From positions 32,001 through 96,000 of the IMG/VR virus record IMGVR_UViG_3300028797_002668: a DNA stretch of 64,000 bases. One strand, 5' to 3'. Position 1 is the first letter of the stretch, and each line of letters starts with the position of its first letter. Below are positions 5,789-56,826 of this stretch, in pieces. The notes under the pieces were generated by a model. The model searched no databases and was not told where the DNA came from. It saw nothing but the letters and a program-made list of their open reading frames with translations. Made by a program: the position numbers and the translations under genes. The stretch comes from a virus. Lineage: Duplodnaviria; Caudoviricetes.

Positions 5789-8700
5789 CTAAAAGCTACA
5801 ATCTTCATCCATACACGCATCATCTTCGTAGAAGTCCAGACCAGTACCATCGGATTTTCCGCCATCGAACACCGGGGATAAACCAGAATAACCTTCCATA
5901 TTGTGGGCGACGATGATTGCGTTGGCCGTAGCCTCAGAATTCATTACTACGCGAATACCGTCAAACACTACGTTGATCGGCTTACAGCATCTAATTTGCT
6001 CATGCATCCGCTCGATGTCTTCGGTTGTCACGGAAACGCTCGGAGAATTAGAATCATCCAGCACATCCAATACTACGTGTGGGGTAGGCACCCACTGGCC
6101 GACCTTCTCGCCTAGTCCAGATTTCCGTTGAATCATTTCGTCGACTTCGGTTTGTCGCACAAGTTCACCGTATGGGTCGGCAGTATTAGTCCACAGCGTA
6201 ATCAACTCGCCAACAAGACCGAACGTCGCCATTAACATGTTGATACCAGCATTCGTACCGTTCAGAGCATAATATTGCGGCAAATGAGCAATTGTTTCTC
6301 GCAAAGCAGCATCCCGTTGCTCATTAGTCCGATATACGCCACTCTCGTTCACATCATCAGAAACCGCAGTTATATCATAACCCATAAACCTAGCCAAATA
6401 TCCTATCAAATCATAGTCTATTACGCTAGCATCCTTCAAATAAGCCAGACGCTCTATCCGTTCAGCCAATGGATAACCCATATCCGGAACACCCTTGAAT
6501 GATGGGTCCATGTCATCACGCGGAGCTACCGTACCGTAATCATACTTCGAAGAATACTGAAGATTCACATCTTGTGTCGTATCCAAGTTATCGATATGCG
6601 GGTTCTCAAAATGGTAGTTTCTGGACATTCCAGCAGCTTGCAAATATGCACGGCCAGACGATGCCTCAGATGTCACAAAGGTATCGCCATACACAACATA
6701 CTTATACTCACTGTCGGTCTCTACCGGGTCGGTTTCATCGAACTTCGGATTACTGCACATATCAACCTTGATGTTGTCAATCTTGAACGTGCGCTTACGA
6801 CGCATCGGAACCCAAGCACCAGTCTTGGAAACTCTCCACGCAATTGACTCGTCCTCACACAACTGATTAGTCGCAATAACTATTTCACCATCAGTAAACC
6901 GATGACCGTTCCAGTTGTACTCACCACTCAGTTTTCCGACATTTCTTCTAGCGATTATACCACGATATATAGTGCTGCCTTTAGAGACATTCCCTAGTGT
7001 AGAAACACCGTCTATCGGACCTAGCGTTACAGTTTCATCACTAGGTACCGTCAATACCTTCGCCTCGGTAAACTTGTTAATTGAGCCACCGTTATAAGTA
7101 TATGCACCATTAGTTTCAGTATCTACGATAACTAAGTCGCCTACATGCAGACCATGCTTGTACTGAGTCCGAACTACATTATGGTTCGACTCAAGAATCT
7201 GGTTAGAAGTTACGAATGTTGCTCGATTGCTTATCTTACTCCAATCATACGCATATACGGTATACTTGTACCACATACCTACATATAACGTCATATCTCG
7301 TCCAACTAGCGATTTCCCATCTGGCATGCCAGTATCGCCAGCAATCTTGATATTAAATACACCCCCACCATTCACGTTGCTTGTCACCGTATGCCATCCA
7401 TTATATGCGCTATGGTCAGCATATCTAATAAATACACGAGTACCTTGATGCAAGTCGCTTTCCGGAACACGGCCAACCAAGTTAACTTGAGCAGTCTCAT
7501 TGTCGATGAACCGTATAACTTTAACCTTGTATCCTTCGCTCATCGCATATACTGGATTCGTATCAGATATGTCTATCAAGTTCTGTTGCGCATAAAGCGT
7601 AAACGGTGTTAAAACGGCATCACGTTCAATCTTCGTCCAATTTCCAGAACTTGCGATATAAAATTCGCGAACAATATCTTCATCATCCTTGCGGTCAATC
7701 TCAACAATATCCCCATCAGACAATGGCTGGCCGGTAGTCTCATTGATGATACGGTGATATACGGCTGATGCCTTAACACCGTCATGGTCAACTTCACCAG
7801 TACAGTATGTACCGGCAGCAACCGACAAACTTTCATACTGAATTACATCTGGCGATAGTACCTTTATTTCAACATCGGTAACATTGAAAATATCACTTTT
7901 AGACGGATTTTCTACAGTCACTCCACTTACGGATATATGCATACCATCAGAAAGTCCGTGACCCGCTGAAGTAATCGTAACTAGCCACCTACCATTATTG
8001 CCCTTAGTTGCAATAAGGTTACTATCCATGTCAATTACGTACAACGGAGCCACACCTCGCTTCATCACCTTTCCGGTTTCATACTCTTTAACGACGGTAA
8101 CCGTTCGGTCAGCCATGTCCACATCCACTACATTGTATGTATTTCCTCCATAAAACTCGACAAAGCCAGCACGAGACATATCGTCGACACCAATATCATT
8201 ACCGTAATATACATATTCGCGCTCTTTCCATCCATAACGCAATCGGGTATCGTTAATCTTCTTGATATACAGTGGAATACGTATCGTATCCATATCATCG
8301 ACACCGTAGTCGACATTTTCGCCAAAATCAAGCGTAGCAACGGCACCAGAATACGGCATGAACGCATTACGCATCTTCTTATATCCAACAGAGAAATGCT
8401 TTAACGTGTCAAGAACCAATTCATACTTATCGCCTTTTATTCCCGATGTCTTCTTTACCATGTAGATATTGTCGTCATCTGCATTATACACATAAGTTCC
8501 GTCAACATAATCGGCGGTTGAATCATACAATATAACATCGTTTTTCATTCGAAGTAGCACAAACTTTTCGTCCCCATCGTTAAAACGTGCTACCATGTAC
8601 TTGTCTGTAAAAATCATTCCGCTATAACGACGAATCACGGCAACCATATCATCACCCATTCTACGTGTATGGTCGACTTTAGAAACATAAGATTCTTTGG

Positions 8701-10567
8701 TTATATCGACTTTTCTAATAGCTGTATAATTATTAATCTGCACACTGGTAGGATGAACAATATGAATGGTTCCAGCATCATATTTAGTTATAGTGAACAA
8801 TTGCGTTTGATAAACACCGTTTACCACGCAATCAAGCAAAACTACATCACCGGGCTTCCACATGCACCCACCATACACAGCATAAGCATGCTCACCAGTT
8901 TCGTCATTACATGCATCTAAACGTGTAATAACACCAACCGAAGGAATAGTCACAACGACATCGTGACCATTCGGATTAAATGATGGGTTCAATTTACGAT
9001 CAAGACCAACTATATACCGTCCAGTAGCCTTTTCGTACTTACATTCGGTAATTATACCTAGTCCGTCCCATGCACCGGGACATAGAATAAATGCGCCAGC
9101 ATACATCTGCACCGGCGAATAGAACGCACGCAAACCAAACGGTGTCCATTCACTCCCCTTGATAGTCGCAACTGATTCATTCTCGGTTACTGTTGCTGAC
9201 GACATGGTATAATTATCAGACATAGAAGCGGCTGGCCCATCGCAGAACCGGTACTCATCGGACCAACGAAGCATCGGCATACGGTTATTACCATCAATTA
9301 CGTAGTAGCTTTCCGACAACGGAACTGACACCAAAGTAAGCGACTTGCTATCCGAAATCATAGCTATAATATCGTATATGTCATACTTTAACGACAGCGG
9401 GAACACCGATGTATACAATTCGCCATCTTCTTTGCGACTCTTACTGGTTATATCGCCATTCATTTTTAGCAAGGCAACTTGTTCATCACCATGCATAAGA
9501 TATAATATAGCATCGCTGTATATTCCAGGCATTCCAGACGATGTATAAATTTTCAGCATACCAGTCGAGCCAACATCGATACGGTTTACACGAAAACGAT
9601 CTACGCTCGGATTAAGCACTGTATCGGGCATAGTTACAATGTTACTAGAAGAAATATTAGTAAGCTTAGACCCGCTCGTTTCACGTAAATAAAATATTCC
9701 AGATGGATAATTTCCGACCCAATTGAACGAATTACCTTCAGCAAACTTTATGTACGTATTATAATTGCCATCAGCCACAGCTGACTGGTTATAGTAATCG
9801 ACAATAACTTGATCCGACTTGTTATCGACTCCATCGACATCAACCAGAACAGAATCTATTGCGGACACCCGGTTTACATCCGTAATCTTTAGTGTAAAGA
9901 AAATTTCATAGTAATTGACTCGCTTATCCCTAGACTGACCACCATAGCGACGAAGAACATGTCCAACATCGGATACCTTGAACTCTATGGCAGTCTTTGG
10001 ATTATTGTCCGTACCAGTGAACGGATCTTGGGACGAACCTAACGGTTCCTTGACCATCGTGTCGTCTACGGATGAATAGTAATAAGCAACCGTTCGTACT
10101 GGCTCCACATTACGATATTTAATGTAAACTACGGCACCGTCCTTCGTATTGGAGTCAACCAAATGCCTAGCGCTTGCCGAAGTAATTACATCTTCTACTT
10201 TCGAAAAATCTACTTCGGCCTCTTTTGGATATTCAGCGCATTCGTTACCGACGATTACGTTCGACTTAACGTTGTTCCTAGGAACAGAACAATACCTAAC
10301 AGAATCACCTCGTTCCGACGCAAGCCTAAGCATAGAGCACAATCTTTCCATCTGGGCCTTTACAGCGTTTTGGTCAGTTGATTTGCAAACACGGACGAAT
10401 TCGAATTCCTCGGTCGTCTCGATATTACGGTAGGCATTGTTGATGTAGTCTGACATCACTTGCATCAACGTAACCACGTCCGGCTCCGTCTTCAGAAATT
10501 CCGGTAAATACCCAACAAAATCGTTGAAGCGAAACTGGCCATTCTTATTATAGACTATCGGATTCAT
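5789..10567 (-). CDS. Large baseplate wedge protein, gp7-like (1592 aa)
   Basis: Directly after the gp6 homologue. N-terminal YLPEFL and C-terminal LIGYLARFMGYDI...LPQYYALNGTNAGINML (P2 gpI/gp7-type wedge domain). Confidence 0.65.
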   Translation of the reverse strand: MNPIVYNKNGQFRFNDFVGYLPEFLKTEPDVVTLMQVMSDYINNAYRNIETTEEFEFVRVCKSTDQNAVKAQMERLCSMLRLASERGDSVRYCSVPRNNVKSNVIVGNECAEYPKEAEVDFSKVEDVITSASARHLVDSNTKDGAVVYIKYRNVEPVRTVAYYYSSVDDTMVKEPLGSSQDPFTGTDNNPKTAIEFKVSDVGHVLRRYGGQSRDKRVNYYEIFFTLKITDVNRVSAIDSVLVDVDGVDNKSDQVIVDYYNQSAVADGNYNTYIKFAEGNSFNWVGNYPSGIFYLRETSGSKLTNISSSNIVTMPDTVLNPSVDRFRVNRIDVGSTGMLKIYTSSGMPGIYSDAILYLMHGDEQVALLKMNGDITSKSRKEDGELYTSVFPLSLKYDIYDIIAMISDSKSLTLVSVPLSESYYVIDGNNRMPMLRWSDEYRFCDGPAASMSDNYTMSSATVTENESVATIKGSEWTPFGLRAFYSPVQMYAGAFILCPGAWDGLGIITECKYEKATGRYIVGLDRKLNPSFNPNGHDVVVTIPSVGVITRLDACNDETGEHAYAVYGGCMWKPGDVVLLDCVVNGVYQTQLFTITKYDAGTIHIVHPTSVQINNYTAIRKVDITKESYVSKVDHTRRMGDDMVAVIRRYSGMIFTDKYMVARFNDGDEKFVLLRMKNDVILYDSTADYVDGTYVYNADDDNIYMVKKTSGIKGDKYELVLDTLKHFSVGYKKMRNAFMPYSGAVATLDFGENVDYGVDDMDTIRIPLYIKKINDTRLRYGWKEREYVYYGNDIGVDDMSRAGFVEFYGGNTYNVVDVDMADRTVTVVKEYETGKVMKRGVAPLYVIDMDSNLIATKGNNGRWLVTITSAGHGLSDGMHISVSGVTVENPSKSDIFNVTDVEIKVLSPDVIQYESLSVAAGTYCTGEVDHDGVKASAVYHRIINETTGQPLSDGDIVEIDRKDDEDIVREFYIASSGNWTKIERDAVLTPFTLYAQQNLIDISDTNPVYAMSEGYKVKVIRFIDNETAQVNLVGRVPESDLHQGTRVFIRYADHSAYNGWHTVTSNVNGGGVFNIKIAGDTGMPDGKSLVGRDMTLYVGMWYKYTVYAYDWSKISNRATFVTSNQILESNHNVVRTQYKHGLHVGDLVIVDTETNGAYTYNGGSINKFTEAKVLTVPSDETVTLGPIDGVSTLGNVSKGSTIYRGIIARRNVGKLSGEYNWNGHRFTDGEIVIATNQLCEDESIAWRVSKTGAWVPMRRKRTFKIDNIKVDMCSNPKFDETDPVETDSEYKYVVYGDTFVTSEASSGRAYLQAAGMSRNYHFENPHIDNLDTTQDVNLQYSSKYDYGTVAPRDDMDPSFKGVPDMGYPLAERIERLAYLKDASVIDYDLIGYLARFMGYDITAVSDDVNESGVYRTNEQRDAALRETIAHLPQYYALNGTNAGINMLMATFGLVGELITLWTNTADPYGELVRQTEVDEMIQRKSGLGEKVGQWVPTPHVVLDVLDDSNSPSVSVTTEDIERMHEQIRCCKPINVVFDGIRVVMNSEATANAIIVAHNMEGYSGLSPVFDGGKSDGTGLDFYEDDACMDEDCSF

Positions 10568-16311: not shown

Positions 16312-16523
16312 TAAGGGTGCGAAATCTTGATGTCATTCGCCGCTGCCACCTGATTCTTGAAACGGGCTGATTTCCAATACCGGTCCATCCGTTTAGAAAC
16401 CGCGAACTCCGCATCCTTCCTCACGAAGTGAAAGCGCATTCCGCGAACCAACGTTTTTGGGATCCAATGCACTATTCGCCAAATAACGTGGGCGCAGCAA
16501 GCGATGTACAAAACAGACTTCAC
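16311..16523 (-). CDS. Small hypothetical protein
   Basis: Fills the gap in the 16761-14371 operon; its stop overlaps the ATPase start. Confidence 0.5.
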   Translation of the reverse strand: MKSVLYIACCAHVIWRIVHWIPKTLVRGMRFHFVRKDAEFAVSKRMDRYWKSARFKNQVAAANDIKISHP

Positions 16524-16533
16524 AAGTTTCCTA

Positions 16534-16761
16534 CTAACGAGACCTTGAGGTCAGACGACCGATTGACCCGTCTTCTTGGTACTTGTCATTATTGGTCTTG
16601 GCCGTGCCGAAAGTCTTCTTCATCGTATTTACGAGTTTAACTAGCATGTGGACAATAATTCCAGCATACATGATGTACTGAGCCTTGTCAAGTACCTTGA
16701 AAAGCCAATCATACTTCGTCGGCTTCTGCTCTTCTACAATTTTAATTAAGAATTTCAACAT
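16534..16761 (-). CDS. Small protein with one hydrophobic segment
   Basis: YIMYAGIIVHMLVKLV; ggag RBS; sigma70-type promoter upstream. Confidence 0.6.
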   Translation of the reverse strand: MLKFLIKIVEEQKPTKYDWLFKVLDKAQYIMYAGIIVHMLVKLVNTMKKTFGTAKTNNDKYQEDGSIGRLTSRSR

Positions 16762-16791
16762 AAAAATCTCCGCCTGAGTTAGACGGAGAAA

Positions 16792-16820
16792 ATAATAGCT
16801 GTGATAAATTTGAAACTCAA
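16792..16820 (-). promoter_or_regulatory. Sigma70-type promoter TTGAGT-N17-TATTAT
   Basis: Exact 17-bp spacer; shares TTGAGTTTCAAATT with the promoter at 54282-54310. Confidence 0.7.
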
Positions 16821-16852
16821 GCCGATTTGGCTTGAGTTATGTAAAAAGATAT

Positions 16853-23829: not shown

Positions 23830-23856
23830 ATCAAAGCCTCGGTGTAATCATAACCA

Positions 23857-23864
23857 AGTTTATA
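23857..23864 (-). promoter_or_regulatory. Late promoter TATAAACT
   Basis: agtttata upstream of 23829. Confidence 0.7.
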
Positions 23865-23919
23865 TGTTTTTGAAACACTCGATGCTTCAATATTTGACTT
23901 TCATAGTATCAATATGAGT

Positions 23920-41710: not shown

Positions 41711-44700
41711 CTAGCGTTTCAACAAGTCGTTCGCCGACGTCATCCTACCCTTTGTAATAAGCTTGTACAACTGCTCAGTAGTCAAGGCGGTTGCACGAGC
41801 GTCAACGTGGACATGCTCCTTGGTAAGTGAAGCCTTGCGTATTCCGGCCAACTGGGCATTCGACACTACTTTTTCGTAAATTGACTCATCGCCGTCTTCC
41901 TCGTTGGCTCCAGCACCCTTGATAGAACCGTCCGTCGACTTCGGAGCGTTGTCGTTGATGTCCTTCTGCTTATATATATTACGAAGCTTGTCGAAGTCAA
42001 TAAGGTCTTGACCAGCAATTAATCCGAATTCATTTTCTAGCATTGACTCCATAGTCGCGTTCGGACCGTCCTTGAAATGGTCGTACATCAATTTTCCGCC
42101 AAAATTTTCGAACATTTCTCGAATCTTATCAAATTCGTTCTTAATCTGTGTAGCAATTAAAGAATGTATTAAACGAGCGTCACCTCGTTCAACATTTCCG
42201 TCCCGGTCAAACCCTTCAATGAAACTTTCATCACTTACAGTTTCCACTTGGTATCCCATAGCTACAAGCTGGTCTTCGGTATAGAAAACACCCTTTATCC
42301 ACATACCACGTTTCATATTCTGCACATTGGCTTGCTTCTCTCCAAAGAAGTTCCCCTTTGAATTAGGGTTGTAGTCAGGAACCAAATCAGTCGTCTTGAT
42401 ATGAATTCTGCCGTCATTTACAGAAATCCATGCGCCGCCGTCACCGACGGACTCAATATATATCTTTGCATCCGCATACAAGCTGCCAAGGTAATCTTGA
42501 ACCATTGCAACATAGTCTTCAGAAAATTTGGAATCGACCGTATTCCGGTACTTCTCAACATATTCACCAGCAATAAGAGCCTTTGCTGCAGATAGACTTC
42601 CTATCATGCCATAATACATAATAAGTTGCTTATATGAACGGTCGTTAAGCGACTTCCACTCAGTCATACTTGCACGGGCGGTCTTGGAAGTACCATTAGC
42701 ACCTTGCTTTGCGTTTACCAAGTTCACAAATTCAAGTATGTTCTGCAAAACCAAATCATTTGGAACCTTGTAGTTTCGAATATTTGCTGGGCTTACATAA
42801 TGATGACCGTTAATAATGATAGCATTCGTGTAAGCAGACCCCTTCCGCAGAACATATGGTATCTTTGTATCTGGCGACTTGTCATACACATAACCAGCCG
42901 CATCTACGTCTACGAAACCAAGCGACATAACTGGGTCTTCTTGGTTGAACATAGCGTCGCGAAACTTAGGAGCATCCTTGTGATTTACACCAATAGGCAA
43001 AAATTCCCAATCAAATAGGTTGGCACCCATCTTGAGACGACCGCACCATACGACATTCAACGGCTTTCCAAATGCACCGTTAGCACAAGCCACGGTAAAT
43101 CCTTCAGCAATGTCGATAAGTTTTTTCATGTCATCACTACCGTCCTCGATAGCCAATCCAGTAATCGGGTCGTTAATTAAGATTTTTATTGCAAGGCCAT
43201 AGTTATGCCATGACAAAAACGTGCTTTCCGCACTTCCAGTACACAATAGAGCTTGGTCATCAATAGAACGCATCGTATCGACAACTTCGACTTGACGAGC
43301 ACCGTAAGTATTACGTAAAATACCAAGCAATATGGAAACAGCGTCATATATTCCAAGCTGTGCTCGCATGTCACCTATACGCTTAGAACTCGGTCTGAAA
43401 ATTCTCCATCCTTCCGTCTTGTCATCATTGGCCGGTACTTCGCGTGAAATACTCGCATACTTACTTTGGTCGAATGCTCCGTAACTCTCAAACGCCCATC
43501 TACGGATTTCACTGTCGTAAGGTAAGTACGGCATCTTGTACTCAATACGAACTGGAGTAAGTTCATCTGACTTGCTAGTCGGATCAAGAGGTAAATATGC
43601 ACCGTATACAAATACCACAGAACCTTCGGACAAATTACCATTTGTTATATGAAACTCGCGAGACGACTTTGTAATAGCAACGGTAACACGAACTCCTTCG
43701 GCATTAGTCAGAACAAAATCTGAACTCTTAAACTTAGTTATGGTATGTGGCTGTATCTGTCCAGTCTCATTACCTTCTAAATCCATATCAAACACTAATG
43801 AACCATTCTTGACATTAGCATTCTTATTAATTGGAACGAACTGCTGTGGCTCGTTCGTATTTTGTGGATAAGATTCATAAACATCATTATCTACAAATGT
43901 CACTTCAGCCCATCTGACTCCAATTGAACGCTTGACCATCTTGTGACGCGTACGGAAAAATTTACGATAGCGAACACGAACCTTCTTATACATCAGCACC
44001 GGAACCATAAACCGAGCTGGCATATACAAGTAAGGACATGGACGGTCGTTACGATTATCAACATAAGACTTGTTATCAAATACCGACTCACCTGTAAACG
44101 TCTGGTACCAGCGTATTTTATTAATGGTGTCCATTAATTCAGCATACTTTTCTTTGGCTTCACGCAGTTTCAACTTCTGCACTAACAAGTACGCCGGCCC
44201 GAAAAACAGTGACTGGACGGTCAGTATATTATCAATTTCGTCAATCGATTCATCCATTACATCGGTAGCAAATTTGATACAACCATCGATATCAGAATTC
44301 GGTATATCGCCTACATTGTCATACTTATCATATGCCGGAACAAAATCAGATTGCGACATTACATAACCAGCCAAAGAGCACGAATCCCACTGTACCACTT
44401 TTATTTCAGTGTCATCAGTTAATCCACCATTAAATGCAATAGACTCGCTCCCAAATTTCTTGCGATTTATAGCATCCAGCATGCAAGTAATATTCCATTC
44501 GCATATATCAGCGAACTGCTTAGCCGAACCTCCATATTGAACCGAATCATTATTAAATTCAGCGGTCAAAGTCTCAACGCCTTGAATCGTGCTATTACGT
44601 TCATTAGGAGCGAATGTTGGATTTACCGGCTTTGTCAAAGTTACCGAACCAGCATCGCCAACCGCAGTGATATCAACAAAAAATCCAACGTTACCTTCAT

Positions 44701-46414
44701 ATTCGCCATACCACCATTTTGAATACAAATGGTCGCCTTCAGATTTTCCATTTTTCTTGTTAATCATCACTGTAAAATAGTCACACAGTTCCTTCTTAAT
44801 TTCCGCCCAAGTCATCTTCTTCGACATAATAAGATTGTTTGCATATGCATTTGCCGATGACAAGCTATTTGTCGTGGAATAATACATCCACGGTCTATCA
44901 GACCGATTAGAAACCCCATACGTATAGTTAGGAGTCCATACATTTACCAAGAATTGGTGCGGCGTCACTGTATAATTTGCTTTATGGACATCCATAACCG
45001 TGCCGCCATAATTAGCAATAGCACGAAAATGGACGTTTTCAAACCCATTTGTTGTCGGATATGCCGATATATATCCAGCATCCTTCATCTTGTCAAGTAC
45101 ATTAACACAAGAAGCCAAGTCTATGTAATATGTAACCTCTGTCCCCGGTGCAACCTTCTTCATAAGCCGATCGCTTTCACGACGTAACTTTCGACGAAGC
45201 GATGAAGACATGAATGTTTGTACTCCACCGATTTCCATTATACTATTGTATGTATCGAAATACCGGTCGTTGAACTCATCAGCAAGTTCGTCCGCATGGT
45301 AAAAATACTTCTTGAACGCATCAGAGACATTTGGAATTAGAGCCGTAGCATTCTGTATCGTATTTGTAGAACCGTCAGAACTAACGACGGTTTCAGTACC
45401 CTTCATATTAGGCAATGGGTTATTATCGCCACGTGTGTAGCACTTGTTCACAAACGAATTCAAACGAGGGTAATAATCTTCCCATTTAGCACGACGGTTG
45501 AAATCCTTATCGTACGTCCAATCACCGGGTTCAATAACATTCCCGACACTATCGCGTACTGGTTCAGCAAACGAATCGTCGTAATAGGTCACTTTTAGAC
45601 CCATGTTATTCTGTCCCAAGATTTTAGACATATCATTCAATCTGCGAACGAACGTATCATAACCAATTACCATTCCACGTTTTTTTGTTTTAGACTGGTT
45701 GACACTACGAGCGTACCATTTCCAGCCAAGATAACGCGAACCATAGAAACCAAGAGCACCAAGCGCACAGTTCACCCAGTTTTCATCAAAATGCAAATCC
45801 CAAGGATTCTGATTCGTATCGTAAAACGACGGATCTAGTGGGTTCATCTCCAAACCGCCGGAAATCGGTTCGCGTGTCGCCACTGATTTTACTTTTGTCA
45901 GGTTCTGCAGACGGACTCTCGGAACAAATGACACTGTAATACCATAGACTGGCGTCCGAAAACCGTCCTTACTAATGTACAGATTGTCGATAACAGCAAC
46001 CTTATCTTGACCATCTTGAACATCGTACGCGGCATGTCCCATTGTCAAACTAACGCTTGGCATAGGCGAACTAGATTCTGGTATCTGTATCATGTTTGCT
46101 GACACTAGCTCGTCAATCGGACAACACTCAGCAATAGTTAAATTACGAGAAACATCCTCACCATCCAAATGGTACTCGATAACTACCGACGCGTTCACGT
46201 CAATTAACGAATCTCCATACTTTATACCGCTGATTTTGTACATCACGTTATTTGTGACATACTCGTTCATACCGACATCGTCGGCTGTGCCATCTTCATT
46301 ACCGGTTTCAGAACTGGCTGTACTTTTTAAGTCGATACCGCTCAGATCGAGATGAATCTCGGTCTTAACCGTTTTCTCGATGTAAAACTTCTCGAAATCA
46401 AAAAGGCCAGCCAT
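41711..46414 (-). CDS. Giant late protein (1567 aa) with an embedded degenerate M15C peptidase-like domain
   Basis: DTMRSIDDQALL...SWHNYGLAIKI...WCGRL...FDWEF at about 43000-43300. Confidence 0.6.
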   Translation of the reverse strand: MAGLFDFEKFYIEKTVKTEIHLDLSGIDLKSTASSETGNEDGTADDVGMNEYVTNNVMYKISGIKYGDSLIDVNASVVIEYHLDGEDVSRNLTIAECCPIDELVSANMIQIPESSSPMPSVSLTMGHAAYDVQDGQDKVAVIDNLYISKDGFRTPVYGITVSFVPRVRLQNLTKVKSVATREPISGGLEMNPLDPSFYDTNQNPWDLHFDENWVNCALGALGFYGSRYLGWKWYARSVNQSKTKKRGMVIGYDTFVRRLNDMSKILGQNNMGLKVTYYDDSFAEPVRDSVGNVIEPGDWTYDKDFNRRAKWEDYYPRLNSFVNKCYTRGDNNPLPNMKGTETVVSSDGSTNTIQNATALIPNVSDAFKKYFYHADELADEFNDRYFDTYNSIMEIGGVQTFMSSSLRRKLRRESDRLMKKVAPGTEVTYYIDLASCVNVLDKMKDAGYISAYPTTNGFENVHFRAIANYGGTVMDVHKANYTVTPHQFLVNVWTPNYTYGVSNRSDRPWMYYSTTNSLSSANAYANNLIMSKKMTWAEIKKELCDYFTVMINKKNGKSEGDHLYSKWWYGEYEGNVGFFVDITAVGDAGSVTLTKPVNPTFAPNERNSTIQGVETLTAEFNNDSVQYGGSAKQFADICEWNITCMLDAINRKKFGSESIAFNGGLTDDTEIKVVQWDSCSLAGYVMSQSDFVPAYDKYDNVGDIPNSDIDGCIKFATDVMDESIDEIDNILTVQSLFFGPAYLLVQKLKLREAKEKYAELMDTINKIRWYQTFTGESVFDNKSYVDNRNDRPCPYLYMPARFMVPVLMYKKVRVRYRKFFRTRHKMVKRSIGVRWAEVTFVDNDVYESYPQNTNEPQQFVPINKNANVKNGSLVFDMDLEGNETGQIQPHTITKFKSSDFVLTNAEGVRVTVAITKSSREFHITNGNLSEGSVVFVYGAYLPLDPTSKSDELTPVRIEYKMPYLPYDSEIRRWAFESYGAFDQSKYASISREVPANDDKTEGWRIFRPSSKRIGDMRAQLGIYDAVSILLGILRNTYGARQVEVVDTMRSIDDQALLCTGSAESTFLSWHNYGLAIKILINDPITGLAIEDGSDDMKKLIDIAEGFTVACANGAFGKPLNVVWCGRLKMGANLFDWEFLPIGVNHKDAPKFRDAMFNQEDPVMSLGFVDVDAAGYVYDKSPDTKIPYVLRKGSAYTNAIIINGHHYVSPANIRNYKVPNDLVLQNILEFVNLVNAKQGANGTSKTARASMTEWKSLNDRSYKQLIMYYGMIGSLSAAKALIAGEYVEKYRNTVDSKFSEDYVAMVQDYLGSLYADAKIYIESVGDGGAWISVNDGRIHIKTTDLVPDYNPNSKGNFFGEKQANVQNMKRGMWIKGVFYTEDQLVAMGYQVETVSDESFIEGFDRDGNVERGDARLIHSLIATQIKNEFDKIREMFENFGGKLMYDHFKDGPNATMESMLENEFGLIAGQDLIDFDKLRNIYKQKDINDNAPKSTDGSIKGAGANEEDGDESIYEKVVSNAQLAGIRKASLTKEHVHVDARATALTTEQLYKLITKGRMTSANDLLKR

Positions 46415-48849: not shown

Positions 48850-50511
48850 CTACTTGTTAACAAATGCGCTCAAATCGACATTATCGAGCAGATTTGTGCT
48901 TTCCTCGCCGACCTCGGCGTCCAAAGCCTTGTCAATATCAGCTTCGGTAGAGTCCGGCTCCGTAACCGGCGGAAGCTCCGCTTCGTTTTCCTTGCATTCC
49001 TTTACAAGGTCACGCAGCTCGGCCTTTTCTTCAGGAGATACGGCGGATTCGACCGCAGCCTTCTGGGCTGCTTCCTTCTCCGCCTTCTTCTTTTCGCGGT
49101 ACTTCTTGCGAGACTCGCGAGCCTTGGCGCGTTTGGCTTCTTCCTTATCAATCACGACTTGCTGTTCTTCGGCGGTCTGCTTCTCCACGGTCACTTGCTC
49201 GTCATAAGAAGCGGCAAGCGAGGCAATGTCGTCATTAGCGACATATTCCTTCGTCTTGGTTTCCTCGGCGACCATATCCGGAGTGGGTTCTTCCGGAGCA
49301 ATGTCTTCGATAGTAATGTTTGCGTCTGCATCGTAGGCATCGATATCCAAGACCTTCAAGCAACGCTTCATATTCTCAAGCGCATAGCCGCCGACACCAA
49401 GTGCGGACATCAAGCTCGCGTTGGTATGGCCACCTTCTTTGAGCATATCGTGCAGCTTGCGGTATTCCGGAGCCGACTCGATAATCATACGGCGTTCACG
49501 GTTATAAATACGCTCGATGGTCTTGCGATGTTCCGGAGTGTCCTGATAGGTCGAGCTGCAGACATACTTAACCATTTCATCCAAAGTACGACCGTTGAGG
49601 ATAGCGGAATCGAAACGAGCCAGCGGAACAGGAATCTCGTTTTCAGCAATCTCTTCCGGAGTAAGCTCGCGCTTCTCGGTGACGGCTTCGACAACCGGAG
49701 CGTCCTTGGCGAACAGTTCCTCGGTATTGGCGTTCATCGGAATATGGAGAAGAAGTTCACGAGCCTTCTGCATCGATGGGTCATAAACGGTATAACCTAT
49801 GGGTTTCGTACCCGGCTTACGATCCATCTCCACGCCGGACTTCAACGCGTACTTGTAGACACGGAGCGGATATGCAGTAGGCTCGAAGGTATCACTCATA
49901 AGGTACGAATTGAACTTCGCATCATTCTGAATAACACCGCGAGTGTCCGTCCAGTTCGGTGCCGTCGGATGAATAGGGTCACGGAGCGGTCTGAACTGGT
50001 TATTTGGAACGTGGAACAAAGTCACAGCCGTATTGGGCGTGTTCTCATTCGGCGACACCTTTCCTTGCGGATTCGGGCGGCAATGCTGGAAGCAGTCGAT
50101 AAGCGTACCGACACGGCTTACCATCGGATGTTCCGAAGACAGATACTTCACGTAAATGGAAATCGCCTCGCAGCGAACCATCGACATATACTGCTTGAAG
50201 CTACGGAACTTCTGGAAGTCGAGCCACAAGAACTCGTCATCATCAAGGCAAACCGCCCAGCACGGACCAGTACGGCGAGATACGTACGAACTAATCATAC
50301 GGCTCTTGAACTTCCAGTCGTCGTTACGCGGAACCATCGTGACGTGCTCGCGATACTTTTCGCAAACGCCGTCAAGCCAACCGCGATGACCGGTATCAAA
50401 AACAAAGATGCAGTCGAAACCCATAGCGATATGGTATTCCAACCATTCGACAAAATCTTGCTGGTTGTCCGTAGACACCCTGACAAGGCAATTAACAAGA
50501 AGATTTTCCAT
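48850..50511 (-). CDS. GT-A fold glycosyltransferase (GT2_4/GT92-like) with long charged C-terminal tail
   Basis: EWLEYHIAMGFDCIFVFD, WAVCLDDDEFL. Confidence 0.75.
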   Translation of the reverse strand: MENLLVNCLVRVSTDNQQDFVEWLEYHIAMGFDCIFVFDTGHRGWLDGVCEKYREHVTMVPRNDDWKFKSRMISSYVSRRTGPCWAVCLDDDEFLWLDFQKFRSFKQYMSMVRCEAISIYVKYLSSEHPMVSRVGTLIDCFQHCRPNPQGKVSPNENTPNTAVTLFHVPNNQFRPLRDPIHPTAPNWTDTRGVIQNDAKFNSYLMSDTFEPTAYPLRVYKYALKSGVEMDRKPGTKPIGYTVYDPSMQKARELLLHIPMNANTEELFAKDAPVVEAVTEKRELTPEEIAENEIPVPLARFDSAILNGRTLDEMVKYVCSSTYQDTPEHRKTIERIYNRERRMIIESAPEYRKLHDMLKEGGHTNASLMSALGVGGYALENMKRCLKVLDIDAYDADANITIEDIAPEEPTPDMVAEETKTKEYVANDDIASLAASYDEQVTVEKQTAEEQQVVIDKEEAKRAKARESRKKYREKKKAEKEAAQKAAVESAVSPEEKAELRDLVKECKENEAELPPVTEPDSTEADIDKALDAEVGEESTNLLDNVDLSAFVNK

Positions 50512-50522
50512 TTTTCCACTCC

Positions 50523-51908
50523 TTAAATCTCGCCGACATCAACATCGGCCATATTCATCACGTCGCGAATAGCGTCGTCAATAGTGTCGGCATCACCCAT
50601 AATCGAACCGTTGCCTCGCGTGAGCTGAGACATTACGCCAGCCTCACGCTGCACAAGAACGTCACCCTTGAAATTCTCTGGGTCAGCGGAGTCTCGGCTC
50701 AACACGGCAAAGAAACCGAACTGCTGCAAGGTCTTGTAGTAATCGGTCTTCGATTCTGGAATACCCCATTCTGCAGTCTTATCCCAGTCCACAGCAAGCT
50801 CAGGAGCTGGCTGGTCAATAATCTGGTTGACCTGTTCGGAGATGTCTTGCGGAATCCACGACAAGTCAATAAGAGTACGGTTACGGATATACTGACCACT
50901 CCAGCCGTTGGCCTTCGCAACCTCAAAAATATTCGGACAATTTTCAAGAAGCTGTACGGCAGCTCCTTCGGAAATCAAGGTTTCCTTGGTCGGCTTGTAC
51001 GCACCGGTCTTCGGATCGACGAAAGCCATTCCACGGATGTTATCCGAAGTATCGCCAGAAAGTACCTTTGCGGCAAGGTACTGCTGCGGATAGGCGCAAC
51101 GGACAAAGTTACCGCTGGTGTGGTTGAAAATCTTAACACCCGGAATGTCAATCTGCGACATATCGGAGTCTCGTGTGATGATAATGACATCGTCATAGTC
51201 CGGAGCGTACTTCTTCGCGGACGCATAAATCATATCGTCACCTTCAGCGACTTCACATCGGACGGCCTTCGCTCGGAAGAACGGAGCAATCTGCATCGCA
51301 TACTGATCCTTGTACTCTTGCCAGTATTTCTTGTCGACGGAGAAGTCCCAAGCGGACGCGGCTCGCTTTCCCTTGTAAGAAGGAAGAATCGGAGTACCAG
51401 TCGTCGTCTTAATACTCCATAGCATATCGCGCTTTTCTTCGGGCATATCGCAAAGCTGGCGATGCTTCAACGATTCGTAAATGGCCTTCTGTTTCAGAGG
51501 AATCTTGACAACGTCGTACTGGTCGTCGCCAATCTTATCAACTTTGAAGGTATAATTGTCGCTGCTTACGTAGTAACTGGTCGAATCGTAGTAAATCGTC
51601 GCTTCCTTGTTGTAGTAGTCGCGGACGAAATTGCGACGCCACGCCTTCTTGCCTTCCAAGCAGAGAATGATGTCCATCGGATTGAAAAGCTTGATGTAGT
51701 CAAGCATACGGTTGAACATCTTGGTACGCCAGATAATCATCTCCTCGTCTTCCGGGAGAATGCTTCCTAGAGTCTGCTTGCTGGACTTTGTCCTCATAGA
51801 CCACAACTGGTGATACGAAAGAGAAGCCCAGTCAATCACCAGCAAGCGTTTATTCTTGTACGGATAACTCCGTATAGGTTGTTCCTTAAAATCCATAATC
51901 ATCCTCAT
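50523..51908 (-). CDS. rnh: T4-type RNase H / 5'-3' flap exonuclease
   Basis: LLVID, YKGKR, EGDDMI, ITRDSDMSQ, GDTSDNI. Confidence 0.9.
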   Translation of the reverse strand: MRMIMDFKEQPIRSYPYKNKRLLVIDWASLSYHQLWSMRTKSSKQTLGSILPEDEEMIIWRTKMFNRMLDYIKLFNPMDIILCLEGKKAWRRNFVRDYYNKEATIYYDSTSYYVSSDNYTFKVDKIGDDQYDVVKIPLKQKAIYESLKHRQLCDMPEEKRDMLWSIKTTTGTPILPSYKGKRAASAWDFSVDKKYWQEYKDQYAMQIAPFFRAKAVRCEVAEGDDMIYASAKKYAPDYDDVIIITRDSDMSQIDIPGVKIFNHTSGNFVRCAYPQQYLAAKVLSGDTSDNIRGMAFVDPKTGAYKPTKETLISEGAAVQLLENCPNIFEVAKANGWSGQYIRNRTLIDLSWIPQDISEQVNQIIDQPAPELAVDWDKTAEWGIPESKTDYYKTLQQFGFFAVLSRDSADPENFKGDVLVQREAGVMSQLTRGNGSIMGDADTIDDAIRDVMNMADVDVGEI

Positions 51909-53698
51909 AAGAAGAACTTCTTCTTAAACGGAGATCCAGTCTTGTTGACCTTGCTCTCATTTTTCTTTCGTGCCTTCTCGGCAGCCTTGCGCTTACGCTC
52001 GGCAATCATCGCTTCATCGACAGTAGCCTCGTAGATACCGTCTAGACGAATTTCATTAACCGGAATATCGTCCTTCGCATAGTAAGTCTTACGAGTTTCA
52101 TAATGTTGCATCATGTAGTTATACTTGAGACGAGGAGGTCCACCACGGCGAGGATTCGTAAAGTATGACGCGTCGTCGACCAAGTCATATACATAAGCCA
52201 TCTTCTTATCCTTATGCGGACGAACTATACGACCGATTGACTGCATCACCATGTAAACTGATTTTGCTGGGTCAGCCATAACCAAATTATGAAGTAACTT
52301 GATGTTCACCCCTTGCTTCATGCATCCATAGGTTGCAAGAATCATATGACCAGTTGAATACTCTATGGACTTACGAATAGTCTCACGCTCGTCCACGGTC
52401 ACGTCACCCTTGATGATGTGGCAAGTGAACTGTGGGAAGTTCTTCTCTATGAACTCGTGCATAAGTTCCAAGTTCTCAATAGCCTTGAACAAGATGACCG
52501 TATTCTGCTCAGTCGTTATCTTTCCGGAATCTATCAAGAGCTTCAAAACATCACGTCGTGAACTTGTACTGGAACAGAAAGCTCGCTCGTCGTCAAACGT
52601 CGAATATCCAATCGAACGTCGTAATGCGTGAGGGTACGGAATAAAAATCGTGTTAACAGTAACCGGCGTCAAGATTCCCTTCTCGACCAGTTCCTTTAAT
52701 CGAACAATCTCTTCCTTTCGGCCAAGCTGGCTCTCGATGTAACCAGCATCGATACCGTCATCAGGCAACGTACCAGATACGCCGACCTTGAAATCGACGG
52801 CGTTTACACACTTCATCAAGATATCTCGTAACTTGATGCCACGAGTCGAATGAGCCTCGTCAACGATTACAGCAGTGAACGCCTCGAAAAACTTCGCTGG
52901 CTTGTTCTGGAGCGACTGCCAAGTAGAAATCGTAATAGGCTTGAGCATCACCTCTTCGCCAATATTGGCTGCCGCAAGACGCTCCTTCTGAGCCTTCGTC
53001 AACTTGTCGTCAGAATCTGCATAAATCAATGTGCAATACTTACGAGCATCTTCCCAACCGTAATCGTCATGAAAATCGGAGAACAACTGTTCCACCAAGT
53101 TAGTAGACGGAACCACAATCAAAATCTTCTTACGCTCACGTTCCAACAAATATCGAGCCATGATGCACATCGATAGTGACTTACCAGCACTCGTACAAGC
53201 GAGCAATGAAATTCGGCGACCGTTCAAGGCACGTTCCACCAGTTTCACTTGATGTTCGTACGGCTTAATCTCGAAGCCTTCCTTCAAGTTGTGAAGCTTC
53301 AATGTCGCAGCGTAGGCGGCAACATCGTCGCTAGTCAATGCACCCCTAGGCGGTGTGTATATATCACGGATAGCCTTCGTCAAACCGATTTTGGTTCCGA
53401 AACGGTTCTTGAGCAACGCACTGACTCTCGGAATAAGACCGATAGGCAACAAGTGGGTCGCCTTGTTGTAGAAATACACGAACGGTGTCTTAAAACCTTC
53501 ACGGACTGCCCATGTGTTCGCAACAGCCTTGTCGTAGAAGGTCATGCTACCAAAAATGAAATTGTTCAGCTTGTTTCCAGCAGTCGAGTCGGTAGCCGAA
53601 ATTTTGATAACGGAAAATACGTCGTCGGCCTTGTCAAAGACAACAGACGTAGACGGCTCCGGGTTCTTAACCTCGGTTACTTCGACTTCTTCGGACAT
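51905..53698 (-). CDS. uvsW: UvsW-like SF2 helicase
   Basis: TSAGKS, LIVVPSTNLVEQ, ISTWQSL, IVDEAH, GVSGTL, GVNIKLLHN, QSIGRIVR, YDLVDD. Confidence 0.93.
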   Translation of the reverse strand: MSEEVEVTEVKNPEPSTSVVFDKADDVFSVIKISATDSTAGNKLNNFIFGSMTFYDKAVANTWAVREGFKTPFVYFYNKATHLLPIGLIPRVSALLKNRFGTKIGLTKAIRDIYTPPRGALTSDDVAAYAATLKLHNLKEGFEIKPYEHQVKLVERALNGRRISLLACTSAGKSLSMCIMARYLLERERKKILIVVPSTNLVEQLFSDFHDDYGWEDARKYCTLIYADSDDKLTKAQKERLAAANIGEEVMLKPITISTWQSLQNKPAKFFEAFTAVIVDEAHSTRGIKLRDILMKCVNAVDFKVGVSGTLPDDGIDAGYIESQLGRKEEIVRLKELVEKGILTPVTVNTIFIPYPHALRRSIGYSTFDDERAFCSSTSSRRDVLKLLIDSGKITTEQNTVILFKAIENLELMHEFIEKNFPQFTCHIIKGDVTVDERETIRKSIEYSTGHMILATYGCMKQGVNIKLLHNLVMADPAKSVYMVMQSIGRIVRPHKDKKMAYVYDLVDDASYFTNPRRGGPPRLKYNYMMQHYETRKTYYAKDDIPVNEIRLDGIYEATVDEAMIAERKRKAAEKARKKNESKVNKTGSPFKKKFFL

Positions 53699-54254: not shown

Positions 54255-54281
54255 TCCTTATTCCATCGTTAGGTTATGTCG

Positions 54282-54310
54282 AATATAGCCATTACCAATT
54301 TGAAACTCAA
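54282..54310 (-). promoter_or_regulatory. Sigma70-type promoter TTGAGT-N17-TATATT
   Basis: Exact 17-bp spacer; 14-bp identity with the 16807-16820 promoter region. Confidence 0.7.
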
Positions 54311-54337
54311 ATTACTCCATTCCGCCATAAAAACAGC

Positions 54338-54519
54338 ATAAAACATGAAACATATATTTGGTTGACGTTCGGACGGCTACGTACTGCTCTACCGAGCACC
54401 AGTCTCAAGTCCGGGTTGGACTAGCACACCAAGTCCGACTCAAAGTTGTTTCTAGGCTCCATCTCAGGGAGCATTTTTGTACATTTTCGTCCCAATAAAA
54501 CATGAAACATATATTTGGT
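54338..54519 (+). repeat. Two perfect 25-bp direct repeats ATAAAACATGAAACATATATTTGGT (54338-54362, 54495-54519)
   Basis: Read directly; 157-bp period. Confidence 0.9.
54360..54478 (+). ncRNA. Candidate structured small RNA or origin element between the 25-bp repeats
   Basis: Three hairpins (54385-54398, 54413-54441, 54456-54472 followed by a T-run); the 10-bp stem is complete only with G-U pairs on the + strand. Confidence 0.35.
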
Positions 54520-54669
54520 ACTTCCGTAGGCACTGTTCGCGAGTTAACAGTTTGGCATAGTTTAGACTGTCGGATGATGGAATAAACTATCGACCGAGGA
54601 ATATGGATATGACAAGGAAAGCCCATATATATGTAATCGAAAGGATCTCAAAGGTACAAGTGGAAAGAG

Positions 54670-54698
54670 TTGACGATCAAATTTGGTTTTTATAGCTT
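54670..54698 (+). promoter_or_regulatory. Sigma70-type promoter TTGACG-N17-TAGCTT
   Basis: Directly upstream of ATG 54711. Confidence 0.5.
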
Positions 54699-54710
54699 TG
54701 TTCCACGAAA

Positions 54711-56300
54711 ATGAGACCTCGTCAATACAAAATACTGCTTCCAGAACCGGTCTTGAACGATTTTAAGGTTCTTATCTCGGACTACTACCGCCAGTACGGT
54801 GACGGCAAGAAATCACGTACTTTCGTGGATAGTGCGGCATTCTTCCTTTCTATGCTGACCAACTCGCTTGTGACCGACCACAAGAAGAACGAGATTACTT
54901 CGCTTGATCACCGTGTGCCAAAGGAGCATTGGTGTACACATCTATACTCCCCTATACTTCGCGATATACTTGGGAACGATTATTTGCTTGTCATCGGTTA
55001 CCTTGCTAATAAAGGCTTCGTAGGTCGTTCTAACCATTACGAAATCGGTACATGTAATTGCCGTGGACGTAGCAAGGCTTATTGGTTTACGGCCAAGTAT
55101 GGTACATACCTTGCAAAGTACCTCAATTCGCGTTCGGTACGTCGTTATTCAAACGAGTCGGTAAAAGTATTCGGTAAGTTCCGTTCATACACGATTAAGT
55201 CCAAGACCGTCCTCGACCGTTGGTTCGCCGTTTTGGAAAAGCGCAAGGAATTTTCGATGTCCGACCCGGTAGTTGAGGATTGTTACAACAACTTGTCCCA
55301 TTTTACCATAGATATGGAAGCTGCGGATGCTACGTTCGACAAGCTCCGTTCTGAGGGTAAGCTATCGAAATACAAGGAGAAGCTGGAAAGAGCCAAGATA
55401 CAGCGTTTTAGCGATGTTGGATCTGAGCCGTACGCTATGTACGTCAAGCACGACCGATACGGGCGTATTCATACGAATGTTACTTGCATGAAGAAGGAGA
55501 TACGTGCCACCGCATTGCGCTGTGATGGAAAAGAAGTTGGCGAGGTCGACATCAAGTCCAGTCAAGTAGCGTTCATCGTACCCGTGTTCAGGCGTTATAT
55601 TGACGTATTCCGTAGTGGATTGACTGAGCAGTGTTCGGATACGTTTATCCAGTTCAAGCCGTTCTGGTACGATGGGCAATGTGATTCTACCTTGGACCGC
55701 ATGGAATCTGAGCTGTGCCAGTTTACTGATTTGGTTAATTCACACCAGATTTATGAGTATTTTGCCAATGAACTGAGTGAGGATTTTGATCTTGATCGTA
55801 CAGTTTCTCGTGAAGAGGCTAAATGCGGCGTGGTTTCTTTTTTGTTCTCGCCGAGATACTTCAACGAGGAAAAAGAACCAGTTCGTGCTGCGGTTAAGCG
55901 GGTTTGGGAAGACCGGTTTCCGACACTACTCCGCTGTTTGTACTCTATGAAACAGAACTGCCATGCGGCATTGGCATATGAGTTGCAGAAAGTAGAGAGC
56001 TGGTTCATTTTTGAACGAGTTTGTCCACGTATAACCAACGAAATTGGCTGCCCGTTCTGTACGGTACATGACTCGGTAATCGTTCCGAAGGACTATTGCG
56101 GACATTTGAAAAAAATAATGGATTCCGAACTATTGGAACTTGGTATACCGACTATTACCGAAGTTGAGTATTACGATATGGTAGAGGCGTCTATGCCTTG
56201 TTTGGCCGACGAGGGTTTCTTTGCCGAGATGAGCCGACGCGGAATAAAAACGGTAGACACCTTGTCTTTGGTAGACGAAAACGTAGCAACTGAGGAATAA
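54711..56300 (+). CDS. Compact Pol-A/T7-RNAP superfamily polymerase-like protein
   Basis: DRYGR (DxxGR), motif A EVDIKSSQ, motif B REEAK...FLFS, LQKVES, motif C TVHDS; no exonuclease domain recognised. Confidence 0.65.
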   Translation: MRPRQYKILLPEPVLNDFKVLISDYYRQYGDGKKSRTFVDSAAFFLSMLTNSLVTDHKKNEITSLDHRVPKEHWCTHLYSPILRDILGNDYLLVIGYLANKGFVGRSNHYEIGTCNCRGRSKAYWFTAKYGTYLAKYLNSRSVRRYSNESVKVFGKFRSYTIKSKTVLDRWFAVLEKRKEFSMSDPVVEDCYNNLSHFTIDMEAADATFDKLRSEGKLSKYKEKLERAKIQRFSDVGSEPYAMYVKHDRYGRIHTNVTCMKKEIRATALRCDGKEVGEVDIKSSQVAFIVPVFRRYIDVFRSGLTEQCSDTFIQFKPFWYDGQCDSTLDRMESELCQFTDLVNSHQIYEYFANELSEDFDLDRTVSREEAKCGVVSFLFSPRYFNEEKEPVRAAVKRVWEDRFPTLLRCLYSMKQNCHAALAYELQKVESWFIFERVCPRITNEIGCPFCTVHDSVIVPKDYCGHLKKIMDSELLELGIPTITEVEYYDMVEASMPCLADEGFFAEMSRRGIKTVDTLSLVDENVATEE

Positions 56301-56340
56301 TAAGCTAGTTTTCATAAGGAAACTAGGTATCGAGTATTCT

Positions 56341-56826
56341 ATGGCTACTTACATTCGTGAAATTATTTTTGAGAATGAACCTAATATTGGTCGTATACCG
56401 GGTACATCCGGTTACATACTTGACAAGGATATGATTGTTGATATCAAGCTGGTCTACCATACAGAAATGACAGACGGTGGTGAGGATTTCATTGAAAATG
56501 ATGAGCACCGTGTCATAGTCCGGAAAGGCTTGACGATGAAGTCGCATCCGTTTCCGAAGTGGTTAATTAGAATGTTGAAATTTTTAGGTTTAGACCTGTC
56601 GCTTGGTATGTCGATGCTTTTGACTGCACTTTACGAGGAAGGTGGCTTGGATGCGTATACTCGTGATCAAATCGACCGCATGTACATTAATTACACGCTC
56701 AAGGCAGTAAAGAATCCGGTTAAACGCGGGTTCTTGGACGTATTGATGGGGTTGTTTATTGGCTCTAACCTTGGTTGGAAATGGAATTCAGAGGAAACCA
56801 AGGTTGCAAGTATAGAGCCTATTTAA
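56341..56826 (+). CDS. Hypothetical protein, degenerate DUF1353-like
   Basis: VIVRKGLT....FPKW...LY...RDQIDRMY; the usual HD motif is absent. Confidence 0.45.
   Translation: MATYIREIIFENEPNIGRIPGTSGYILDKDMIVDIKLVYHTEMTDGGEDFIENDEHRVIVRKGLTMKSHPFPKWLIRMLKFLGLDLSLGMSMLLTALYEEGGLDAYTRDQIDRMYINYTLKAVKNPVKRGFLDVLMGLFIGSNLGWKWNSEETKVASIEPI

Follow-up and report, generated by a model that had tools for sequence, protein, structure and literature searches.

The window analysed here is a stretch of 64,000 nucleotides (bases 32001-96000 of a 135-kb virus contig, G000), in which a gap at positions 54255-54710, 456 bp without open reading frames (ORFs), splits a long run of minus-strand genes from a plus-strand ORF (54711-56300) for a polymerase of 529 amino acids. 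Two perfect copies of a 25-bp sequence, referred to below as the twin element, lie in the gap at a distance of 157 nt from start to start, as described in an earlier annotation of the same sequence (the original prediction). That annotation had also taken the gap, with its ∼450 bp, for the largest non-coding one in the window; the size was correct but the rank was not, as another gap (16312-16831) measures 520 bp and these two are the largest. The twin element, the polymerase and the gap as a candidate site of replication initiation are the subject of this report.

The contig carries T4-like genes for head, portal, baseplate and sheath stabiliser, a copy of the polymerase with 99% identity is present on a contig of 485,763 bp (relative L001), and DNA of the phage was detected in bovine gut or rumen sequencing runs from 13 studies. 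The source of the window is a huge phage, T4-like and from the cattle rumen. One metatranscriptomic run yielded two short contigs only, both inside the polymerase gene. PolB was found in all four genomes searched (the own contig and three relatives) and a DnaG-type primase was clear in G001, an 83% relative (phrog_47, E 8e-40), which makes the 529-aa polymerase an extra enzyme.

The polymerase

The motifs noted in the original prediction were recovered in the 529-aa ORF as D248-R-Y-G-R252, D280, R367-x3-K371 and H453-D454-S455. Among 46 homologues R252, R265, D280, S284, Q285, K371, Q426, E429, H453, D454 and S455 are invariant, and R367 is conserved in at least 90% of the sequences. Neither the protein nor its family gave a usable match in Pfam (E up to 10), in PHROGs or in sequence and profile searches of the PDB. 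The family is large, with 111 close clusters and, at E up to 1e-3, 1,829 representatives, found mostly on contigs of 100–500 kb; the nearest clusters in the ESM Atlas, none of them named, are mostly from Bacteroidota.

Structure prediction (AF2) gave a model with a pLDDT of 83.8, for which the top 50 Foldseek matches were all PolA DNA polymerases (DNAPs; E about 1e-5). The right-hand polymerase fold, on which the original prediction depended, was recovered in the profile and structure search with thumb, palm and fingers; the palm is RRM-like and is preceded by helices at residues 186-237. The VIA-align Z-scores over residues 181-489 were 14.0 for Klenow (rmsd 3.6, 251 residues aligned), 13.6 for pol theta, 13.0 for T7 DNAP, 12.8 for yeast mitochondrial RNA polymerase (RNAP) and 10.3 for T7 RNAP; judged from the model, the fold by itself does not tell a DNAP from an RNAP. 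Polymerase structures align to residues ∼181-489 only and the first 180 residues form a separate domain, in agreement with the predicted lack of an exonuclease. The top 50 structural matches of this N-terminal domain are mostly winged-helix proteins (ORC/Cdc6, TFIIE, Fur, LexA, MarR and a plasmid initiator); the modelled domain looks winged-helix-like, which is a lead and not an assignment, given Z-scores of 5.8 or lower.

The DxxGR and HDS motifs had been read as marks of a T7-type RNAP, a claim that did not hold up in profile comparisons. Small family alignments, built from phage records, were needed here because hhalign runs of the family alignment A1 against the single sequences of T7 RNAP or T7 DNAP were insignificant. 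With an alignment of six phage PolA sequences the probability was 95.9% (E 2.7e-9), compared with 3.8% (E 0.011) for an alignment of five Autographiviridae RNAPs, and the GRIHT sequence also corresponds to the 'DGRIHT' motif of PolA. Motif B, the LxxxLQ/Q-x2-E motif and motif C align to R518-K522, LLQS and VHDE of T7 DNAP; motif A was misplaced by hhalign and the register to the DNAPs is not fixed by it. No Pfam match to PF00940 (T7-like RNAP) was obtained for the protein; a genome search with the same model was empty as well, but the controls were equally silent and the result is uninformative. Nor is the protein a canonical PolA (PF00476): it has no Pfam match, reads HDS instead of HDE, has F379 in place of the Tyr eight residues after the Lys of motif B, and lacks the exonuclease. 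The invariant Q285, five residues after D280, presumably occupies the steric-gate position, in an ungapped register taken over from E. coli Pol I; this position is a Glu in DNAPs and a Gly in T7 RNAP. With respect to the type of substrate (NTP or dNTP), the profile leans to the DNAPs. Overall, the residues read from the sequence indicate a minimal family-A polymerase with an intact catalytic centre and no exonuclease, in whose model a winged-helix-like N-terminal domain stands in the place of the exonuclease.

The twin element

A search of the 64-kb window at up to three mismatches gave no third copy of the element, and two matches were obtained in 0 of 100 shuffles. Twin repeats upstream of the gene were also expected in homologues, and they were found in relatives down to about 25% identity, as exact pairs of 17–26 nt in L002, L004, L006, L009, L010, L013-15, L018-21 and L040 and as imperfect pairs in L007, L011, L012 and L042. 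The two copies always run in the same direction, toward the polymerase gene, at a spacing of 96–186 nt, or about 820 nt where an endonuclease V gene is present. The element reads GAAACATATATTTGGT in clade I, CGAAACAT(T/A)A(T/A/C)ATGG in the 47–49% clade, (T/G)AAACATAT(C/T)TATAG and CGTAAACATCTTTATGG in the 36–37% clades, and GGGAAAACATAAATGG and CAAAACATAA(T/C)TATGG in the 25–29% relatives. The sequences differ between clades (e.g. AAACATCTTTATGG) and share a common plan of AAACAT, a short AT-rich run and then TGG or TAGG, of which the AT-rich run followed by GG resembles T7 promoters.

Exact matches to AAACATATATTTGG in G001 (355 kb) are limited to the pair. The motif was likewise confined to the pair in G003 (348 kb) and in G010-G012, with reversed-pattern controls of zero; a single copy is present in G013 and one additional site in G014, and the remaining loose matches were at the level of the controls. 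The genomes in which the element is unique to the locus measure 160–355 kb. The only other loose intergenic match in the own contig, at window positions 23854-23869 on the minus strand, was considered as a third site and rejected, as it reads AAATCAT in G001.

The gene has a second conserved site close to its start. The promoter-like sequence TTGACG-N17-TAGCTTTG is kept into clade II (L004, 49% identity, as a TTGCCA variant) and in G004 (34% protein identity); by its sequence and position it is probably the polymerase gene's own promoter, from which a near-leaderless mRNA would be made. TTGAC-N17-TAGCTTTG was also considered as a general promoter class, which was ruled out by its single occurrence in the 135-kb contig.

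A different arrangement is seen directly upstream of two homologues of ∼24% identity, where five to six tandem repeats of 66 nt (ATTGGTAGAACATGACAAATTACAGGCATTAACACCA...) are present (L055:2340-2720 and L056:3225-3700). These repeats are iteron-like and contain an AACAT core.

A candidate replication origin

The original prediction had placed a replication origin in the gap and had named GC skew as a means to examine this. The locus was found at the global minimum of the cumulative GC skew in five genomes (Table 1), and the minimum lies within about 2.5 kb of the gene in 5 of the 6 genomes at 34% identity or more. When genes were compared by position in four genomes, their top-strand skew was negative to the left and positive to the right of the site, whatever the strand of the gene; the sign tracks the side and not the gene strand, a signature of replication and not of transcription. 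These skew data suggest that the gap, a candidate origin, is probably the bidirectional replication origin of the phage.

An origin at this position is compatible with another role for the repeats, namely as iterons of a different initiator (the 184-aa or 161-aa neighbour listed in Table 1, or a host protein), to which the polymerase would be recruited by protein contacts in order to make dNTP primers, as CcPol-MP/Cch2 does on SCCmec. The closeness of the enzyme to PolA DNAPs and the conserved synteny of both unassigned neighbours fit this explanation, as do the iteron-like arrays before L055 and L056 and the precedent itself (PMC7581432). Iteron arrays do not, however, consist of two copies 96–186 nt apart that always point to the gene; the enzyme has a DNA-binding-like N-terminal domain of its own, and the 161-aa protein is detectable in nearer clades only whereas the twin element reaches further. 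We consider this explanation improbable.

Table 1. Features at the polymerase locus (window numbering) and positions of the cumulative GC-skew minimum and the polymerase gene in the genomes compared.
Feature	Position	Strand	Remarks
SF2 (DEAD/ResIII, UvsW-like) helicase	51905..53698	-	directed outward from the gap; synteny kept in L001, L002 and L004
Conserved protein, 184 aa	53700-54254	-	flanks the locus; syntenic
Twin element copy 1, ATAAAACATGAAACATATATTTGGT	54338..54362	+	perfect 25-nt repeat
Inverted scrap of endonuclease V, 37 nt	54365..54401	+	positions 111-147 of the window gap equal positions 668-632 of the L001 gap, 97%, opposite strands
C-terminal codons of endonuclease V	54398..54424	+	eight sense codons and stop (TSLKSGLD*); 5' arm of the 10-bp stem
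Intrinsic-terminator-like hairpin GCTCC-N7-GGAGC and T-run	54456..54478	+	terminator of the endonuclease V cassette; present in L001, L002, L005 and L007
Twin element copy 2, ATAAAACATGAAACATATATTTGGT	54495..54519	+	perfect 25-nt repeat; GAAACATATATT(T/C)GGTACT(T/C)CCG(T/A)AGG invariant in six clade-I relatives
Promoter-like TTGACG-N17-TAGCTTTG	54670..54700	+	10 nt before the polymerase ATG
Polymerase, N-terminal domain (residues 1-183)	54711..55259	+	pLDDT 88.8; winged-helix-like matches with Z under 6
Polymerase, minimal family-A core (thumb, palm, fingers; residues 184-489) and poorly modelled C-terminal tail	55260..56300	+	structure match; invariant residues
Conserved protein, 161 aa	56341..56826	+	directly 3' of the polymerase; syntenic in relatives down to 47% polymerase identity
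Global cumulative GC-skew minimum, G000 (own contig, 135 kb)	54525		window numbering; six bases after copy 2; gene 54711-56300
Skew minimum, G001 (355 kb)	154,213		gene 153,964-155,550
Skew minimum, G003 (348 kb)	86,837		gene 86,954-88,480
Skew minimum, G004 (422 kb, terminal repeats)	211,043		gene 207,958-209,229
Skew minimum, G011 (260 kb)	91,373		gene 90,114-91,643
Skew minimum, G012 (253 kb)	105,859		gene 79,130-80,686; slope flattens at the locus (∼80 kb)
Skew minimum, G005 (508 kb, ∼25% clade)	21,116		gene 252,714-253,928; no coincidence
Skew minimum, G007 (∼25% clade, first 280 kb of 314 kb examined)	78,739		gene 55,591-56,712; no coincidence

The skew of G005, the 508-kb record behind L053, climbs almost monotonically over 490 kb, from a minimum at 21 kb to a maximum at 492 kb, unlike the V-shape of the nearer clades. 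The mode of replication or the start of the contig may differ in this record, which is flagged as a provirus in IMG/VR.

An endonuclease V scar between the two copies

The original prediction had described hairpins and a T-run behind copy 1 as a structured element. The stems and the T-run exist, but comparison with relatives points to another provenance. An endonuclease V gene (PF04493) lies between copy 1 and the terminator in L001 (99%), L005 and L008 (83%) and L007 (69%), with copy 1 ∼45 nt upstream of the gene in all four. In place of 33 nt of the window, about 694 nt are present in a rumen contig (run X4), and the window matches L001 at 98% from position 54396 onward. By this alignment the stretch after copy 1 is a deletion scar, composed of an inverted scrap, the last codons of endonuclease V and the terminator of its cassette, and not a dedicated structured element. 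Because L002 is without endonuclease V and still has the terminator, the gene was probably lost more than once. The position of the deletion junction just after a twin element, together with the inverted scrap, suggests that template switching took place where initiation or stalling is frequent. Among near-identical rumen phages the cassette (promoter, gene and terminator) is found in some and missing from others (window 54363-54424; L001:1974-2714; L005, L007 and L008).

The predicted 10-bp stem with its G-U pairs was found (54413-54422 pairs with 54432-54441), as was the duplicated CAAGTCCG; both fall in the endonuclease V remnant and its 3' untranslated region. Folding was no better than that of dinucleotide shuffles, either for 54361-54482 (minimum free energy z = −1.31) or for 54518-54713 (z = −1.24), and the gap gave no match beyond chance in Rfam or in a tRNA scan. 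The leader between copy 2 and the ATG shows indels and little covariation among relatives. Terminators between the copies are limited to the clade with a present or past endonuclease V, and a conserved unit of copy 1, short RNA and terminator was ruled out on this ground. A 31-aa ORF in the leader (54604-54699) was also discarded, as it looked conserved in L002 and is broken by indels in L006 and L007. The proposal that the gap yields short structured RNAs is not supported, given the chance-level folding and the nature of the first stretch. The same applies to a structured RNA as cofactor or template of the polymerase, which had been put forward as an alternative. Stems can be drawn, and a 3' arm ATAAACT after copy 2 is kept in six relatives; on the other hand, the sequence between the copies is unrelated from clade to clade, which adds to the scar, the variable leader and the empty Rfam search. 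We regard such an RNA, already disfavoured, as extremely unlikely.

The presence of endonuclease V exactly between the copies in some close relatives and its absence from others could also be a matter of cassette gain and loss, with the repeats acting as recombination or cassette-exchange sites or as the ends of a mobile element of the TV-Pol type; transposons are the typical setting of TV-Pols (PMC2579912). When the window lost the gene, however, the deletion left both copies and an inverted internal scrap in place, and the copies were not recombined. Furthermore, synteny at the locus is kept in clades that range from 83% to 34% identity, no integrase or resolvase adjoins it, and most clades have nothing between the copies, which makes a role in exchange very unlikely.

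In L001, L005, L007 and L008 copy 1 is immediately followed by an mRNA gene, endonuclease V, that ends in a terminator of its own, so that a functional promoter must contain or adjoin copy 1. This observation bears on the main alternative, in which the twin elements are ordinary promoters or operators for the host RNAP (perhaps with a phage factor) that drive endonuclease V (where present) and the polymerase gene, while the enzyme itself does not depend on their sequence and works elsewhere, for example in repair, gap filling or translesion synthesis or as a non-specific primase-polymerase. The clade I element also reads, and ends with, TATATTTG, which fits the −7 consensus of Bacteroidota promoters, TAnnTTTG; the predominance of Bacteroidota among the nearest Atlas clusters would agree with such a host, and the profile of the polymerase, nearer to DNAPs than to RNAPs, also speaks for this alternative. 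A host-type promoter should nevertheless recur in a 350-kb genome, and the element is confined to one locus. In addition, the part conserved across clades is AAACAT with TGG or TAGG and not TAnnTTTG, a −33 TTTG is not present at the expected distance, and the gene has the separate, conserved proximal promoter-like site. The uniqueness of the element and the conservation of AAACAT argue, at the level of sequence, against host promoters as the whole story, and we judge the alternative unlikely.

A model for initiation at the twin element

The reading that we prefer, with a probability of roughly 0.45, is that the twin elements are origin-linked initiation sites for a TV-Pol-like priming polymerase. 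Expression of the polymerase gene would come first, driven by the proximal TTGAC-N17-TAGCTTTG promoter of the gene itself. The enzyme would then bind the twin elements via its N-terminal domain, open the AT-rich run and start a chain de novo at the GG, and the resulting leading-strand primer or R-loop would be extended by PolB. The logic would be that of the twin phi1.1A/B promoters of the T7 primary origin, of the origins of T4 that combine a promoter with an R-loop, or of priming by CcPol-MP at the SCCmec origin. In clade I, an endonuclease V cassette with its own terminator was captured behind copy 1, and in the window it has been deleted. That the polymerase itself recognises the twin repeats is what we infer. 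In its most specific form the proposal describes a sequence-specific, de novo initiating family-A polymerase, with a core of ∼350 residues and a winged-helix reader, that fires the origin of huge T4-like phages from a 14–25-nt site found at that locus only, alongside PolB and a DnaG-type primase. This form is conceivable, although we hold it to be doubtful.

Several observations weigh against initiation by the polymerase at the twin element. Instead of a twin, only one AACAT-like site is present in the G004 clade. The global skew minimum of G012 is 25 kb off, though a plateau begins at the locus, and the gene is not at the skew minimum in the ∼25% clade (G005 and G007). The five genomes in which skew minimum and locus coincide are not fully independent because they have gene order in common, and the adjacency and co-conservation of enzyme and repeats may merely mirror the synteny kept around an origin. 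The fit of the clade I motif to the host −7 box means that host RNAP could use the motif, and the Z-scores of the N-terminal domain are low. Family-A DNAPs, moreover, normally require a primer. CcPol, the sole proven family-A primase, requires an SSB-like partner (PMC7581432), which has no demonstrated counterpart here.

Comparison with known systems

The closest likeness is to the TV-Pols, which are predicted primase-polymerases (Iyer, Abhiman and Aravind 2008, PMC2579912). These are nuclease-free, minimal family-A cores of 400–600 residues, with a two-helix thumb, a hairpin Arg before the palm (here R252 and R265), two catalytic Asp residues and RxxxK in the fingers; they come from Bacteroidota-associated sequences and viruses, and some members have an extra N-terminal domain (PMC2579912). 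That domain is all-helical in the TV-Pols (PMC2579912), whereas the one described here is alpha/beta and winged-helix-like. A D5-like helicase, integrase or resolvase does not neighbour the gene either, and in huge T4-like phages the enzyme has a stable place at the predicted origin. No sequence link to a named TV-Pol was obtained; a search of Microcystis phage Ma-LMM01, which has a TV-Pol member, with the A1 profile gave no match at E up to 1, an empty answer that is uninformative.

CcPol-MP/Cch2 of SCCmec (Bebel et al. 2020, PMC7581432; Rice 2023, PMC10061031) likewise combines a family-A polymerase that acts as a primase with a helicase and a putative origin at its side. CcPol prefers starts in the origin repeats, with a purine as first nucleotide (PMC7581432; PMC10061031). 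CcPol depends on the OB-fold partner MP, uses dNTPs on single-stranded DNA and belongs to elements of Bacillota, whereas the enzyme of the window carries an N-terminal domain of its own. The adjoining helicase also differs, being SF2/UvsW-like and divergently transcribed in the window.

In T7, too, the polymerase gene lies by two same-direction sites at the primary origin, phi1.1A and phi1.1B at 5848 and 5923, 75 bp apart and right after gene 1. The T7 RNAP system resembles the present one in its recognition block, AT-rich run and G start, and in the HDS of motif C. The enzyme of the window is half the size, its match to the RNAP profile is insignificant (3.8%) and PF00940 does not detect it. 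Its sites, moreover, are upstream of the gene and at one locus only, whereas those of T7 are downstream of the gene and many promoters are annotated.

The T4 origins oriF and oriG consist of a middle promoter and an unwinding element, which together yield an R-loop primer, and UvsW removes R-loops. These origins use the host RNAP with MotA and AsiA. The phage of the window is likewise T4-like and bears PolB, with a UvsW-like helicase and an RNase H/FEN by the candidate origin (and the DnaG-type primase in G001); it differs from T4 in the dedicated extra polymerase gene at the origin. No paper linking this polymerase family, huge phages and an origin was found in the literature collection searched.

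The origins and the initiation of huge phages are essentially unmapped, and the candidate origin is narrowed here to a few hundred bases in several genomes of 250–490 kb, beside which lie a candidate initiator enzyme and a candidate recognition site. If the most specific form of the proposal is correct, origins would be primed in a third way, in addition to DnaG/AEP primases and host-RNAP R-loops, and within the T7/PolA superfamily no promoter-specific polymerase would be smaller than this enzyme, whose cognate sites would be specific to each clade. If the enzyme starts chains at the twin element, phages as well as SCCmec-type elements would have adapted family-A polymerases to prime at origins. 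A function would also be obtained for a large family that lacks annotation (no Pfam model; 1,829 representative clusters), and compact polymerase/site pairs with clade-specific sequences could serve as orthogonal tools. If it does not, the position of the origin, the endonuclease V cassette polymorphism found there and a clean negative on structured RNA would still stand.

Neighbouring genes and further observations

To the left of the gap lie the genes for the UvsW-like helicase, FEN/RNase H and SbcC. Between FEN/RNase H and SbcC, and within this replication and recombination cluster, a GT-A glycosyltransferase (PF13704) is encoded at window positions 48850-50511 on the minus strand. None of the neighbours of the polymerase (SF2 helicase, FEN, glycosyltransferase, SbcC and unassigned proteins) is an integrase, resolvase, transposase or D5-like helicase. 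The 161-aa protein has an invariant YEE-G and a C-terminal EPI and is detectable in nearer clades only; neither this protein nor the 184-aa one had a match in Pfam, PHROG or the ESM Atlas.

Two very long ORFs are present on the minus strand of the window, one of 1567 aa at 41711-46414, for which neither PHROG nor Pfam gave a match at E 1e-3, and one of 1592 aa listed at 5789-10567. No tRNA was found in the window by ARAGORN. In the 422-kb relative, repeated tRNA-like arms (e.g. GGCAGGACTCGAACCTACGACC) at G004:C1:101500-106200 suggest a tRNA gene array.

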